Part shown: positions 10,302-16,041 of the stretch, one piece after another
How positions within the stretch are numbered: the stretch's first letter is position 1
Layout: each line of letters opens with the position of its first letter
Virus record (IMG/VR): IMGVR_UViG_2554235304_000008
DNA from: a virus
Lineage: Duplodnaviria > Heunggongvirae > Uroviricota > Caudoviricetes
Reading direction: 5' to 3' (one strand)
Length of the DNA: 35,555 nucleotides
The notes under the pieces: generated by a model
Database searches by the model: none
Told to the model about the DNA's origin: nothing
What the model saw: only the letters and a program-made list of their open reading frames with translations
Position numbers and translations under genes: made by a program

Positions 10302-13300
10302 TCAGCTGATACTGATGCCTGCGGTGGCTTTCTTCATCACCACAACCAGCAAATCGCTGATACTTGCTGTGGGATACCAGTTATTCACCAGCCATGCTGA
10401 CACCGAAAACTCCAGTGTCATGTGACCGTGACCGGCAGGCATATCAATAACACCACTGTAAATCAGCGTATTATCCAGCGCGGTACGGTTATAAATTTCA
10501 GCACCGTTTTTCCGCACTATCAGACGGCATGAGGAGTAAATATCAGTATGCTCTTTCTCATGTTTAGCGCCGCTGAATGCCACCGCCGGAATAACAATCT
10601 GCCGGTCAAACGGCTGATCGTCATAAACCCTGACGGTAATGGTCCCTGATGGCCACCGCTCCGGTGCACGGGAGTCCCGGGGGAAAGCTTTGCCCACTGT
10701 TTTAACGAGATCGCCTTCAATCTGGTTGGCGGACAGTTTTCCCAGAACCCGACAGTTTTCGTTAATCGTGACGTTGTTGAGCGTCCCGGAGTTCGCATTC
10801 ACGTTACCGCTGATATCGGCATTTTTCGCCGTCAGCCGCCCGTCCGGTGTCAGGGAAAATGCCGGAGGATTACCGCCACTGGTAATGGTGGGAGCCGTCA
10901 GGTATTTCAGGAACACTTCGTTCATGAATATCTGATCGCCCTGACCAACAAACATCGGCTTTGTGTTGCCATTCGCAGGATTAATCATCGCAATCCGGTC
11001 AGCAGCCAGAAGCACCTGACTCTGCATACCTGCTGGCGTATTCTCAATACCGGCTCCGATACCCGCAATATAAAGGCGTCCGTCCTTCATCTGCTGCAGT
11101 TTCACGGCCCACATGCTGTTCAGGTTATTATTTGTATCAACCTGAACTTTCTGTATCTGCTGGATTGCCGCGCTCTGATTTTCCAGTTTTTTATTGACGG
11201 TCTGCGTGATTTCATTGCTGACATTCGTAATGGACGTCCTGATTTCAGCCAGATCAGGCGCAAGCTGACCGTTATCAATCTGCGTCCACAACTCCTGAGC
11301 CAGATGGGTTTTCCCTATCTCTCCTTTGAAAAAATCCAGATAGCCGGATGCATCATCACTCGGCTGGCCAACAGCCTCCACAAATGCCGATTTGCCAACA
11401 GTATTCACACTGCGGATATAAAAATAATAATCATGGCCCGGTTTGATATTGATACTGGCAGCTATCCAGTACAGCGCCGAGCCAAGATAGCGGGCTGCGG
11501 TTTCAACCTGCCTGATATCCGCAATCCGCTTTTCCGAGAACCAGAACTCAAACTGTACCGTCGGGTCATAAACGGCAAGATGCGGCGTGGCGGTTATCTG
11601 AAAATAGCCCGGCGTCAGCTCAATCCGCGACGGTGCTGCCGGTGCGGCAATCCGGAAGGTGGTGGTGGCAGGTTCACCCTGCTGGCCATAGCTGTTTATC
11701 GCCCGCACCGTCAGGGTGTATTCCCCGAGCGGCAGGCCGCTGAAACGGTGCTCCGTGTCTGCGGTGATGGCGGTGGTCACCAGTCTGGCATCCGTTCCCT
11801 TACCACTGGTCAGGCGCAGACTGAAGCGCACACCCTTCACCACCCGCGGCGTGTCCCATTTCGCCTGCGCCAGATACTGGCCGTCAGCTGCGCTCACCTC
11901 CACCGTCAGGTGCTGCACTGCCGGTGGGATGACGCTGTTCAGGGAACCTGACTGCGGCTCAAAGCGGGCACCGTTATCCACGATGGCTTCTTTTTCCGGT
12001 ACGTGCTGCACCGCCGTGATGGCAAAGGTGCCGTCCGTGTTTTCCCGGACGGAGACACAGCGGAACAGGCGACGGCGCAGTGACGGCAGGGAGAGTCCCC
12101 ACACCCCGTATGTCTCCACACCATCAGGCAGGGTACTGACCTGTATCCGGTCCGGCGCGGGGTGTTCGGTGATGTCCACACTCACCGGCTTACCGCTGCC
12201 GTTAATCAGGTTCACCGTGGCGGCACCGGTCTCCGGAAGTGTCACTTCACGGTCCAGCGTCAGGGTGCGGGTGGCAGCATCAATGGACAGGACACGTCCG
12301 CCGGTCAGGGTCCCGGCATAGTCGTTATCACAGATTTCAATGATGTCACCGGGTGTGTGCCGCAGCCCCTGAGACCCGAGCGTGAAATCCACCGTCTGCG
12401 TTTCCAGCAGTTCGGTCTTTATCACCCACAGTCCGGCACGGTGGGCCTGACCGCGGCTGGTACAGCCGAACGCGTCCATCTTCAGCAGGTTGCGTCCGTA
12501 GCGCAGTATGGCTTCCGGGTCTTCCACCAGTTCCGTGGAGGTCTGCCAGCCGTTCTGCGGGTCGGTGTAATTCACCTCCACCGCCGTGTGCCGGTCCTTC
12601 AGGGCACTGAAGCTGTAGCGGAATCCCACGCCGTTATCATCCACCACCACATCGCTGTTGGTGTACGGCCACACCACATCCGACGGGCGGTCCTGAACGA
12701 ACGTCAGCGTCTGACCGTTCCATACCGGCATACAGCGCATCGCAGAGCAGAAATCACTGAGAACGTCCCACGCCTTACGCTGTTGTGCCAGGTACGCATT
12801 AAAGGTCATCCGCGGCTCTGTCCCCCCGAAACCATCCGGGACCGTCTGGTCGCAGTACTGCCCGATGGCATACAGCGCCCACTTGTCCACATCCGCCGCC
12901 CCCAGACGTTTTCCCATGCCGTAGCGCGGGTGAGTCAGCATGTCCCACAGGCACCAGGCCGGGTTGTTGCTGTATGCTGGTTTCAGACTGCCGTCCCAGA
13001 TACCACTGTACGTGCGTTTTTCCGGGTCATAGTTTGACGGCACCTGGATGATGCGACCGCGGATATGGTAGTTCACCGTCATCTGCTGGCCGCCGAACTG
13101 CTCCGCATCCACCTGCAGCCCCACAATGGCCGTGTTCGGGTAGCACTGTTTCACATCGATGATTTCGGTGTATGACGACCACAGCGTCTTATTCTGCAGC
13201 TGGTCCGTGGTGCTGTCCGCCGTCTCCCTGACCATCCGGATGTTAAAGGGCCGGGGAGGCAGATTATCCAGAATCACCGAGGCCAGGAACTGTGAGGTGG

Positions 13301-13775
13301 TCTTGCCGTTAATGGTGACGTCCTTTTCCGTCACCCAGCGGCCATTACGCTGTAACTGAATCAGAATCCGGACAGAGGAAGGATTACGGTCGCCCTTTGA
13401 CGTGGTCTGCACCAGTGACAGCACCCCGAAGGTAACCCGCAGGCGGTCAATGTTCGCGGACGTAATGGTGCGCGTCACCGGTTTTGCCTTCGTCACTTCC
13501 ACGCCCAGTCCGGTTTCAGCTCCGGAGGACTCAAAGCCTTCCGGTGGTGTCTGCTCCTGCTCCCCGGCGCGCCAGACCGCCGTCACACCGTGTATCACGG
13601 GATTACCGTCCGTGTCCGTCAGCGGGGTTTTGTTCACCAGAATACTCTGCAGGCCTTTCACCGGGCCTTCTATCGGTCCCTCACCAATCGCATCAATCAC
13701 GCTCATCATCTGCGTGGATTTGAGATTGTCTTTCGCCTCACGCGGTGTGTGCGCCTTGCCGCCACCTTTGCCCAT
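10302..13775 (-). CDS. J: Tail tip / host specificity protein J
   Basis: 1157-aa ORF, size and position as lambda J (1132 aa), in the conserved I-J-lom order. Confidence 0.95.
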
Positions 13776-13878
13776 TACATCACCTCTTACCGTGATAATT
13801 GTTCACTCACAAAAACAACAGGCACCTCACCGGGTGCCTGCGTCATGACGGAATAAAATTTCTGAATATCTTCACATT

Positions 13879-13906
13879 TTCACACACTGACTGTGGCGCT
13901 TATAAT
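13879..13906 (+). promoter_or_regulatory. Candidate sigma70 promoter in the I-J intergenic insert
   Basis: TTCACA (13879-13884), 16-nt spacer, perfect TATAAT (13901-13906). Faces away from the late operon. Confidence 0.4.
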
Positions 13907-13912
13907 TTCGCT

Positions 13913-14010
13913 GCGTTAGTGTTTTTTTGCCCGAGTAACAAAAACAACTCCTTCACATTGATCTTCATTTGTCTGTCCCCGCAGCTCCGCGATCACTGCG
14001 GGATTTTTTT
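13913..14010 (+). ncRNA. Candidate ~100-nt small RNA (promoter-terminator unit between tail genes I and J)
   Basis: Bounded by the predicted promoter upstream and a strong intrinsic terminator at 13978-14010. No ORF with an RBS is evident. Contains a CA-rich stretch AACAAAAACAACTCCTTCACATTG. Confidence 0.35.
13978..14010 (+). terminator. Intrinsic terminator (+ strand) in the I-J intergenic region
   Basis: Stem CCCGCAG / CTGCGGG with an 11-nt loop, followed by ATTTTTTT. Confidence 0.6.
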
Positions 14011-14015
14011 ATGTT

Positions 14016-14696
14016 TTATCCCTGTCGCCCGATAACCACGACCTTTCCGCCCCCGCCTTCATCACGGGTGCTGATGTCCTGGGATATACGGCGGGAGCCA
14101 ACCAGCATTTCCCCGTAAGGCACCGGCATCGGGTTCCCCTGGGCAATCATGTTATCCAGCGAGGAAAAGTACGTGTTCTGTCTGCCGTTATCCGTTGCGC
14201 GGTAATCCGGTGTTTTTGCCTTCGGGGCCAGCATCTGGGCCACACCGCCCAGAATCATGCTGGCTCCAAGTGAAAACAGCATCGTGGTGGCAGAAAAACC
14301 ACCGGCTGCCAGGGCTGAACCCCATAACGCCATTGATGCCCCGGCAGTGAAGAAAGAGCCCACGATGGCTGCCGCCCCCAACACAATCTGCAGTCCACCC
14401 TTTCCGGCCCCGGCCAGTCGCGGCACAATGTGGATGACCGTTCCCTCACCCAGATGTTCGTGAAGGCGGGCGTACACCACCTCCGGTGCCGTGTCTTCAC
14501 CGGCAATACGTATCTGGTACCAGCCTTCGTTCATCTGAAGGCGGAATCCCGGCATCTGCATCGACAGGGCACGGATGGCTTCCGCTGCCGTGTTCACATA
14601 CAGGCTGAGGCGGCGGCCAAATCGTTGTAAATCCCCGTGAAGGCAGATGTGTGCCAGTGGCGGTGACGCCAGACAGAATGCGTTCGTCGTTGCCAT
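14016..14696 (-). CDS. I: Tail assembly protein I
   Basis: 226-aa ORF. N-terminus ...ICLHGDLQRFGRR...AEAIRAL...WYQIRIAG...IHIVPRLAGA... and C-terminal QNTYFSSLDNMIAQGN track lambda I. Confidence 0.9.
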   Translation of the reverse strand: MATTNAFCLASPPLAHICLHGDLQRFGRRLSLYVNTAAEAIRALSMQMPGFRLQMNEGWYQIRIAGEDTAPEVVYARLHEHLGEGTVIHIVPRLAGAGKGGLQIVLGAAAIVGSFFTAGASMALWGSALAAGGFSATTMLFSLGASMILGGVAQMLAPKAKTPDYRATDNGRQNTYFSSLDNMIAQGNPMPVPYGEMLVGSRRISQDISTRDEGGGGKVVVIGRQG

Positions 14697-15337
14697 TTTT
14701 CGGAATACCTCTCCCGTTTACTCAGTTGTTCAGGAATATGGTGAAGCAGTTCACCGTTGCCGCAGTATATGGCGGCATGATTGGCCACCGATGCGCCAAA
14801 GCAGCACAGCAGGATATCGCCAGGCTGTGCGGAAGGCAGGGAAATCCTGTAAAAACCAGTCGCCTCCATATTGTCCAGGTACAGGTTCTGACCGTTGCGC
14901 CACCAGTCATCCTCACGCTCAAAATCCGGCATATCAATTCCCGCCAGATGGTAGGCATCCCGGAACAGCGTGTAACAGTCCGTCACCCCGTGCTCAAAGC
15001 GCCGTCCTGTCAGATGTGGCACACAGCGGAATTTATGAATTTCCCCCCGGCAGACCAGCCACCAGGACAGTGCACTTTTTATCTGCAGCCGCCGGTCGGC
15101 CTCGCTCAGCCAGGGCAGACCACCGGGATGACTGTGGACCAGTGCCACAATCTCCCCCTGCATCTCTGCCCGCAGCCAGTCTTCCGGTGCAATACGAAAA
15201 TACGCCTCCGGCTCTGCAGAGATATTCACACAAGGGATATACCGCTCCCCCTCCTGCGTTCTCACCACGAAGCCGCACGACTCCGCAGGCACACACCGCC
15301 AGGCATGCGCCAGAATCGCTGATTCTGTCTGTGTCAT
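14594..15337 (-). CDS. K: Tail assembly protein K (JAB/MPN plus NlpC/P60 domains)
   Basis: Starts MTQTESAILAHA... as lambda K. Carries a JAMM-like HSHPGG...SEAD motif and a cysteine-peptidase-like DCYTLF motif. Overlaps I by about 103 nt, as recalled for lambda K/I. Confidence 0.85.
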   Translation of the reverse strand: MTQTESAILAHAWRCVPAESCGFVVRTQEGERYIPCVNISAEPEAYFRIAPEDWLRAEMQGEIVALVHSHPGGLPWLSEADRRLQIKSALSWWLVCRGEIHKFRCVPHLTGRRFEHGVTDCYTLFRDAYHLAGIDMPDFEREDDWWRNGQNLYLDNMEATGFYRISLPSAQPGDILLCCFGASVANHAAIYCGNGELLHHIPEQLSKRERYSEKWQRRTHSVWRHRHWHTSAFTGIYNDLAAASACM

Positions 15338-15342
15338 TGGAT

Positions 15343-16041
15343 TTACTGCGAAAGTTTGTTAATGGAAAGGAAACCGCCAAAATTGCCGACATTCCTGCGC
15401 AGTTCACACCCGCGCATGCACTTGCTGCATCTGTCCTTACGGATATCCGTGGTGGGGTTGTCGAACTCATCCGCCACCGCAGGACCGTTATACCCGCATT
15501 CATCTCCCCGGTAATCCCACATACAGGTGTTCGCCAGCATGATGCGACCGGGAAACAGCGCCCCGTCCGTCTCGGTCGGTGTGGCCAGCACAAACGAGGC
15601 CGTCATGGCTGTCAGCTGCGACATCTGCTCCACCACCCAGCGGTCACTCAGCTCCTGCTCCGGGTCCGCCTCCGGATTGCCCGCAACGAAATTCACCGCA
15701 TCCAGAAAACGGGCATACACCCGGCGGCGGACCACCGTGGCCCCCACCAGACTCTGCAGGTCCTCCGCCATCCCGGTGACAAGGCCAAACAGATTGGACA
15801 CCGTCAGCGACGGGCGGGCACTGCTGCCCCGGCCGTTCATCTCAAAGCCGCTGCCGTCAATCGGGTATGCCTCATACTTACGCCCCTGCCAGGTGACCGG
15901 CTCCCCTTTTTCATTCAGCTCATTACAGAAAAAATACCGCTCACCGCCCTGTACCATCAGGTCGATTTCCCAGAGTACCACCCGCGGTGACTGCTCTGAT
16001 TTAACCGACTCGTTCAGACTTTCTTCGTGAATATCCTGCAT
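15343..16041 (-). CDS. L: Minor tail protein L
   Basis: 232-aa ORF, same length as lambda L, with a cysteine cluster near the C-terminus. Position between M and K. Confidence 0.9.
   Translation of the reverse strand: MQDIHEESLNESVKSEQSPRVVLWEIDLMVQGGERYFFCNELNEKGEPVTWQGRKYEAYPIDGSGFEMNGRGSSARPSLTVSNLFGLVTGMAEDLQSLVGATVVRRRVYARFLDAVNFVAGNPEADPEQELSDRWVVEQMSQLTAMTASFVLATPTETDGALFPGRIMLANTCMWDYRGDECGYNGPAVADEFDNPTTDIRKDRCSKCMRGCELRRNVGNFGGFLSINKLSQ

Follow-up and report, generated by a model that had tools for sequence, protein, structure and literature searches.

The analysed stretch of DNA, called the window in the following, has a length of 35,555 nt (IMG/VR record IMGVR_UViG_2554235304_000008) and contains, on its minus strand, the genes for the tail assembly protein I and the tail tip protein J. 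The open reading frame of gene I extends to position 14696 (14016-14696, minus strand), while the RefSeq start is at 14597. An earlier note on this DNA had put the gap between I and J at about 240 bp, against about 60 bp in phage lambda. Measured from the gene ends the gap is exactly 240 bp, and the lambda value was borne out by phage 434, which has a lambda-type tail operon and in which I (14773-15444) and J (from 15505) are separated by 60 bp. The I and J annotations of 434 rest on BLASTp similarity to the lambda products. In Gifsy-2 the I-J gap has 71 bp. The spacer of the window was found to be 100% identical, in reverse orientation, to NC_011601.1 1466256-1466495 (E. coli O127:H6 E2348/69), and the neighbours in that strain are again gpJ (E2348C_RS07640) and the tail assembly protein I (E2348C_RS07635). 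The features of the locus are summarized in Table 1.

Table 1. Features of the I-J spacer and its flanking genes (window coordinates).
Feature	Position	Strand	Remarks
Tail tip protein J (flanking)	10302-13775	minus	
I-J intergenic spacer, 240 bp	13776-14015		start codon of J at 13775 (minus), stop codon of I at 14016 (minus)
Ancestral I-J hairpin with U-rich tail	13808-13841	minus	43-66 nt upstream of the J start; outside PasB
Inserted module (moron), about 165 bp: promoter, PasB, terminator	13850-14015	plus	from alignment; absent from lambda-type gaps
Sigma-70-type promoter	13879-13906	plus	-35 TTCACA 13879-13884, 16-nt spacer, -10 TATAAT 13901-13906; 11/12 matches
Possible 5' extension of PasB	13913-13927	plus	promoter geometry and conservation
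Predicted 5' hairpin of the 98-nt form (tentative)	13918-13949	plus	U-run paired with A/CA-rich AACAAAAACAAC
PasB as published, 83 nt	13928-14010	plus	NC_011601.1 1466343-1466261, minus strand of the record
Predicted seed region UCCUUCACAUUGAUCUUCAUUUGUCU	13949-13974	plus	single-stranded in the prediction; core AUCUUCAUUUGU 13961-13972
Intrinsic terminator, likely Hfq proximal-face site	13978-14010	plus	stem CCCGCAG/CUGCGGG, 11-nt loop, A, U7
Tail assembly protein I (flanking)	14016-14597	minus	RefSeq start

The near-consensus sigma-70 promoter that had been proposed on the strand opposite to the tail operon was recovered with 11 of 12 consensus matches, and it is the only site with at least 11 matches on either strand of the window. 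Composition-preserving shuffles yielded 0.48 such sites per window, and, therefore, the promoter hexamers alone are not significant. The unit as a whole exceeds a chance match, as its sequence is conserved among E. coli genomes (see below) and its transcript has been detected in experiments (PMC8550237). The -35 box TTCACA occupies one and the same alignment place in the alleles of the four sequence classes A to D, which are described below, and the TTCACA that class C has retained is an identical copy 9 nt upstream (window positions 13872-13877). At the -10 box, classes A and B have TATAAT, class C has TATCAT, and class D has AATAAT.

The strong intrinsic terminator was also confirmed. Its arms (13978-13984 and 13996-14002) form a GC-rich stem of 7 bp, which is followed by an A and seven U residues up to position 14010. 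Seven U residues lie above the 3' U-tract of at least four residues, behind a Rho-independent terminator, that serves as a criterion for Hfq-dependent sRNAs. The stem was invariant among 18 distinct alleles and thus shows no covariation that could speak for or against the structure; the pattern used for the allele search also fixed the 3' arm of the terminator. In an RNAalifold consensus across the alleles the terminator alone was recovered, and the predicted 5' hairpin was not obtained as a consensus structure.

Between the promoter and the terminator no convincing open reading frame is present, as had been stated before. None fits inside the transcript, and the two plus-strand reading frames that overlap it (13799-14035 and 13969-14118) extend beyond the terminator. 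A reading of the spacer as the remnant of a decayed gene or as a small-protein gene, with incidental promoter and terminator matches, is extremely improbable. Such a gene could be seen in the mechanically called reading frame 13799-14035, which spans the spacer with 78 codons and a TTG start, and one promoter as good as this in a window is near the chance expectation. However, the reading frames overrun the terminator, no Pfam match was found for the spacer reading frames, the alleles differ by indels of 1, 4, and 5 nt that disrupt the frame, and the transcript has been reported as an Hfq-bound RNA that is abundant and about 83 nt long (PMC8550237).

This RNA is PasB, the pathogenicity-associated sRNA B, which was discovered by RIL-seq and detected by RNA-seq and Northern blot analysis (PMC8550237). 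The window is the prophage PP6 of EPEC E2348/69, and the unit in its I-J spacer is the gene for PasB, which very probably acts as an Hfq-dependent, trans-acting sRNA carried by the prophage as a moron. In Table S6 of that study PasB is placed in PP6 at NC_011601.1 1466343-1466261 on the minus strand, with a length of 83 nt. Record positions r were converted to window positions w by w = 13776 + (1466495 - r). The complement of the published Northern probe AATCCCGCAGTGATCGCGGAGCT (PMC8550237, Table S6) was located at 13983-14005 of the window. The locus is the one described for PasB by Pearl Mizrahi et al. (Sci Adv 2021), between E2348C_1436 and E2348C_1437, and no difference was seen. The earlier note had postulated a prophage sRNA made from a promoter-terminator unit inserted in the I-J gap on the opposite strand, and this feature is thus real and is PasB, but it is not new.

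The dependence of PasB on Hfq is documented by the published deletion data. Upon deletion of hfq the PasB level dropped 110-fold under the activating condition (log2 fold change -6.8, padj 2e-40), and the log2 fold change was -2.4 under the non-activating condition (PMC8550237). The level of PasB was higher in overnight static LB cultures (PMC8550237). Its distribution has been reported by Zhu, Shabalina and Storz (bioRxiv 2026), who found 1,158 PasB hits within phage structural operons and noted that PasB is often the sole Pas gene of a genome (10.64898/2026.05.13.724894). The SNP at position 27 that defines PasB-2 in their study corresponds to C13954A in the window and is present in O157:H7 EC4115. 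No Rfam 15 model matched at the locus, at the gathering or at a permissive threshold. As the existence and the distribution of PasB have already been published, the finding itself adds nothing new. What is added here is the assignment of the promoter, the question of a 5' end at 13913 or 13928, a predicted seed that was mapped against targets, the anatomy of the insertion in comparison with lambda-type gaps, the divergent sequence classes, and the link to EcOnc22-24.

The 5' end was the point at which the expectation from the sequence and the published data diverged. A transcript of about 100 nt starting near 13913 had been proposed, and the promoter geometry indeed gives a start near this position, but the published RNA has 83 nt and begins at 13928. 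Transcription may start about 7 nt past the -10 hexamer, which ends at 13906, and this would result in a primary transcript of 98 nt. At this predicted start the classes share the hexamer GCGTTA, except that class D reads GCATTA. The published 5' end at 13928 was taken from read coverage in RNA-seq together with a size estimate from the Northern blot (PMC8550237). Because it derives from read coverage, its difference from the promoter-predicted end at 13913 could reflect processing or a different start.

Comparison with other I-J gaps showed how the unit is embedded in the tail operon. Most E. coli genomes with a match share the block 13850-14015 at about 98% identity (of 1109 matching records, 879 have 95-99%), and in these genomes the J-proximal 74 nt are replaced. 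The O157-type I-J gaps have 341-343 bp and a different hairpin. The block of about 165 bp is thus conserved, the J side is exchanged, and the block is absent from the gaps of 434 and Gifsy-2, and, therefore, the unit behaves as a moron. Like the phage morons of the concept of Juhala et al. (2000), it has its own promoter and terminator, separates two neighbouring late genes, is missing in the lambda-type relatives, and shows expression in the lysogen. It differs from them in that it carries a non-coding RNA and in that its transcription runs against the operon.

A scan of species-representative genomes with an exact pattern, which would miss divergent alleles, detected the module in Escherichia albertii and in one short contig only, in line with reports that it is confined to Escherichia and Shigella. 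A contig of 3.4 kb that is labelled Streptomyces flavalbus carries a PasB-like module at positions 2135-2271. Most likely this represents a contamination of the assembly with E. coli or phage DNA. In O157:H7 EC4115 a truncated J pseudogene was found beside a PasB-2 module that is 98% identical to the window, and, thus, the sRNA module was retained in a decaying prophage.

The earlier note had also described a minus-strand hairpin with a trailing U-run just upstream of J, at about 13824-13850. The hairpin is real (folding z-score -3.65), but its position had to be corrected: a stem of 9 bp extends from 13841 to 13818 and is followed by UGUUUUUGUG, with the U-rich tail at 13817-13808. The short gaps of 434 and Gifsy-2 consist essentially of one operon-strand hairpin with a U-run, and in the 434 record this hairpin is labelled 'terminator'. 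The hairpin of the window aligns with both of them. The flank AAAACAACA is common to the three, the stem sequences differ, and the folding z-scores are about -3.4 to -3.7 in all three cases. Because it aligns with the hairpins of the lambda-type gaps, it is regarded as the ancestral I-J element and not as a part of the sRNA. The terminator-like I-J hairpin has been retained in 434, in Gifsy-2, and in the PasB-bearing phages, and in all of them it lies inside a late operon that is antiterminated by Q. In the O157-type gaps another, bidirectional-looking hairpin is found in place of the I-J hairpin.

The position of the unit within the late operon also raises the question of a function in cis. 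PasB is convergent with gene I, its 3' end lies 5 nt from the stop codon of I, and it is fully complementary to an I-to-J read-through transcript. In addition, the slot is conserved in tail operons, and the PasB promoter is in every case separated from J by a terminator-like hairpin. The unit might thus oppose the transcription of the late operon or pair with the late mRNA, and in this way tune J or be titrated upon induction. As the main mode of action this is improbable, since PasB has many trans partners in the published interactome and since the module of EC4115 has stayed 98% identical next to a J gene that is a truncated pseudogene. A cis role could coexist with the trans role.

It had been suggested, with reservation, that the unit might encode an anti-sRNA of the kind reported from EHEC prophages, as the transcript contains a CA-rich stretch of the kind that pairs with GU-rich sRNA seeds. 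The stretch is indeed present (13937-13960), but it did not show any excess complementarity to the published targets. That PasB is a sponge, in which the CA-rich stretch mimics the targets of a GU-rich seed such as GcvB R1, as is the case for AgvB, is highly improbable. PasB is prophage-encoded and Hfq-bound, and the CA/A-rich AACAAAAACAAC resembles the (ARN)n motif for the Hfq distal face as in AgvB, which would be in line with a sponge. However, no chimera of PasB with an annotated sRNA such as GcvB is contained in the published RIL-seq tables (PMC8550237). No S-chimera of GcvB and PasB was seen under either condition, whereas GcvB-SroC was represented by 1104 fragments in the same data (PMC8550237), and at least 98.7% of the chimeric PasB fragments had PasB as RNA2. 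The predicted pairing of PasB with GcvB R1 had an energy of -16.4 kcal/mol and was equalled or beaten by 40% of the shuffles and by 83% of the genomic 66-mers, i.e., it was at chance level. The motif CACAACA is absent from PasB. A covariance-model search for the described EHEC sRNAs, which had been recommended, gave no hit for AgvB (RF02702) or AsxR (RF02703) within 13650-14150, neither at the gathering threshold nor with E-values up to 10; as a positive control, the AgvB model scored 96.5 bits in Sakai Sp10. Lastly, in the predicted fold of the 98-nt form the CA-rich stretch is base-paired.

The comparison with AgvB and AsxR of EHEC revealed similarities as well as differences. All three sRNAs are prophage-encoded, Hfq-bound, and short, they have a variable 5' part and a conserved 3' terminator, and all bear an ARN-like A-rich motif. 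AgvB and AsxR are located at the PR'/stx moron site downstream of Q, beside stx or lysis genes, and have a length of 51-60 nt, whereas PasB is located in the tail operon and has 83-98 nt. They pair with host sRNAs (GcvB and FnrS), in contrast to PasB, for which neither pairing with an annotated sRNA nor an Rfam match was found, and AgvB carries the target mimic CACAACA for GcvB R1, which PasB does not have.

The predicted structure of the 98-nt form suggests a different role for the CA-rich stretch. In this prediction AACAAAAACAAC is paired with the U-run near the 5' end, the region 13950-13977 between the 5' hairpin and the terminator is unpaired, and AACAAAAACAAC also reads as an (ARN)4-like motif (13937-13948). 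Because the stretch is predicted to be paired with the 5' U-run and is (ARN)4-like, a role as seed appears less plausible. We infer that a structural role or a role as Hfq distal-face site is the more plausible one.

The reading of PasB as a trans-acting sRNA is in agreement with its published interactome. It contains 37 interactions, and PasB was RNA2 in 100% and 98.7% of the chimeric fragments, which is the signature of an sRNA (PMC8550237). The partners include napF, map, yhhX, the rpoS leader, hflX, fabR/yijD, and tolC (PMC8550237), and, furthermore, caiF, ler, perB, bfpB, and espC (PMC8550237). All listed partners are mRNA segments, with the exception of one intergenic transcript beside pasA (PMC8550237). 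PasB is among the most connected sRNAs of the accessory genome of EPEC in the RIL-seq data. It contacts virulence mRNAs (ler, perB, bfpB, map, and espC) as well as core mRNAs (rpoS leader, tolC, and napF), and, therefore, it offers the prophage a route to rewire the expression of the host.

Three details of the partner list were observed in passing. The transcript beside pasA (NC_011601.1 743494-743512, plus strand) is antisense to the 5' end of pasA, and its chimeras with PasB comprised 19 fragments under the activating condition. The nlpD-rpoS intergenic region together with the rpoS start region (NC_011601.1 3102260-3102620) is among the stronger partners of PasB, with 56 fragments. In the RefSeq record of E2348/69 rpoS is a frameshifted pseudogene.

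The partner sites were used to locate a seed region within PasB. RNAduplex predictions of the full-length sRNA with target windows were uninformative, because they returned whole-length duplexes, and they were replaced by a scan of 12-mers and by local duplexes of 40 nt. In the scan the best duplex of each PasB 12-mer with 16 partner sites of E2348/69 was compared with random windows. The 12-mers starting at 13945-13963 had mean z-scores of -0.7 to -1.5 over the 16 targets, and the values were around 0 elsewhere. The 12-mer starting at 13961 reached a Bonferroni-corrected p-value of 0.003 with the 16 partner sites, and the 12-mers of the CA-rich stretch had a mean z-score of about -0.3 with the same sites.

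RIL-seq partners are enriched for ribosome binding sites (RBS) and the seed starts with the anti-SD-like sequence CUCCUU, and, therefore, RBS-matched controls were also used. In this comparison 11 start-codon-proximal partners were set against 52 RBS-centred control windows. The signal persisted, with a peak at AUCUUCAUUUGU (p = 4.8e-5), and the CA-rich stretch had a p-value of about 0.3. These computations suggest that PasB has a defined seed for multiple mRNA partners at 13949-13974. The predicted position agrees with a proposal based on conservation, which placed the seed just upstream of the terminator (10.64898/2026.05.13.724894).

About half of the predicted target sites lie over the RBS or the start codon, and about half lie inside coding sequences. 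Relative to the start codon, the predicted duplexes extend from -23 to +6 for napF, from -11 to +18 for caiF, from -5 to +7 for tolC, from -17 to +3 for trmJ, and from -19 to +14 for gshA, and those of ydbJ and raiA overlap the start region as well. The napF site agrees with the complement of CUUCACAUUGAUCUUC at 15 of 16 positions. The predicted sites of ler, map, yhhX, and hflX are located within the coding sequences.

The following mode of action is proposed. In the lysogen, where the late (tail) operon is silent, a sigma-70 promoter of its own would drive PasB in the opposite direction, and its transcription would end at the intrinsic terminator, 5 nt short of the gene I stop codon. The hairpin of this terminator and the U7 tail would form the likely Hfq-binding module. 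The single-stranded region 13949-13974 with its core AUCUUCAUUUGU would pair with GAAG-rich sequences of many host and virulence mRNAs. As about half of the sites lie over the RBS or the start codon, pairing at these positions is predicted to result in translational repression; we infer the regulatory outcome in this way for any PasB target.

Next, the sequence diversity in the I-J slot was analyzed. An exact-pattern scan of IMG/VR gave at least 120 loci, and together with five further loci and the window at least 127 instances of the module were obtained, which represent at least 40 distinct module sequences. When Sakai is included, at least four classes can be distinguished by sequence that fill the same slot, i.e., class A, which is PasB, the classes B and C, and class D, which corresponds to EcOnc22-24. 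All four have the same position of TTCACA, the U-run, the A-rich stretch, the core AAUCUUC (GAUCUUC in PasB), and the stem CCCGCAG/CUGCGGG, and they differ elsewhere in the seed region. Among 5426 complete E. coli genomes class A was found in 956 (median one copy), class B in about 770-800, class C in 469 (median three and up to eight copies, mainly in EHEC), and class D in about 540. Among the matches listed, no annotated feature of the RefSeq records was found under a match to any of the four classes. Several divergent alleles of the I-J slot are thus widespread in E. coli and, among the matches listed, unannotated.

Class D occupies the 240-bp I-J gaps of the Sakai prophages Sp15, Sp14, and Sp11. 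Tree et al. (Mol Cell 2014, Table S2) had described EcOnc22, EcOnc23, and EcOnc24 as Hfq-CRAC peaks in the Sakai strain of EHEC O157:H7; on Northern blots the RNA measured about 85 nt, and it was destabilized when Hfq was absent. The three peaks are located, in this order, within the I-J gaps of Sp15, Sp14, and Sp11, on the strand that opposes the operon. The coordinates of Tree et al. refer to an older version of the genome, and the offset to NC_002695.2 is +137 to +146 at 1.94 Mb, as measured at AgvB1. With this offset the peaks fall on the sRNA body (gap positions about 160-230), and without the offset they are still within the gap.

Like PasB, the three EcOnc sRNAs have TTCACA at its place, the U-run, the A-rich stretch, and the CCCGCAG/CUGCGGG terminator, together with the AAUCUUC core. 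In contrast, the identity to PasB is 65% over the transcript, and the seed core is flanked by other sequences. Our reading is that EcOnc22-24 and PasB are probably homologous alleles of one slot and not the same sRNA. The link to EcOnc22-24 is absent from both PMC8550237 and 10.64898/2026.05.13.724894, and it represents a modest addition and no new kind of discovery.

It is conceivable, albeit rather doubtful, that the I-J gap of lambdoid prophages is a second, unrecognised slot for swappable sRNAs, besides the PR'/stx moron site. If this were true, each prophage would plug an Hfq-dependent sRNA with different targets into the regulons of the host and its virulence genes (ler, perB, the rpoS leader, tolC, and napF), and the fully complementary late transcript could switch the sRNA off upon induction of the prophage.

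A further observation concerns the end of the window, where a convergent pair of sRNAs was noticed (35293-35474 on the plus strand and 35475-35555 on the minus strand). A plus-strand promoter-like site (35246-35274) and a terminator (35446-35467) coincide with the candidate E2348C_1409.E2348C_1408.IGR. This candidate was reported at 1444797-1444978 as a homologue of EcOnc08/21/42 (PMC8550237, Table S6). Its neighbour on the opposite strand gave a partial hit to the Rfam family STnc100 (63 bits), which is cut by the end of the window.
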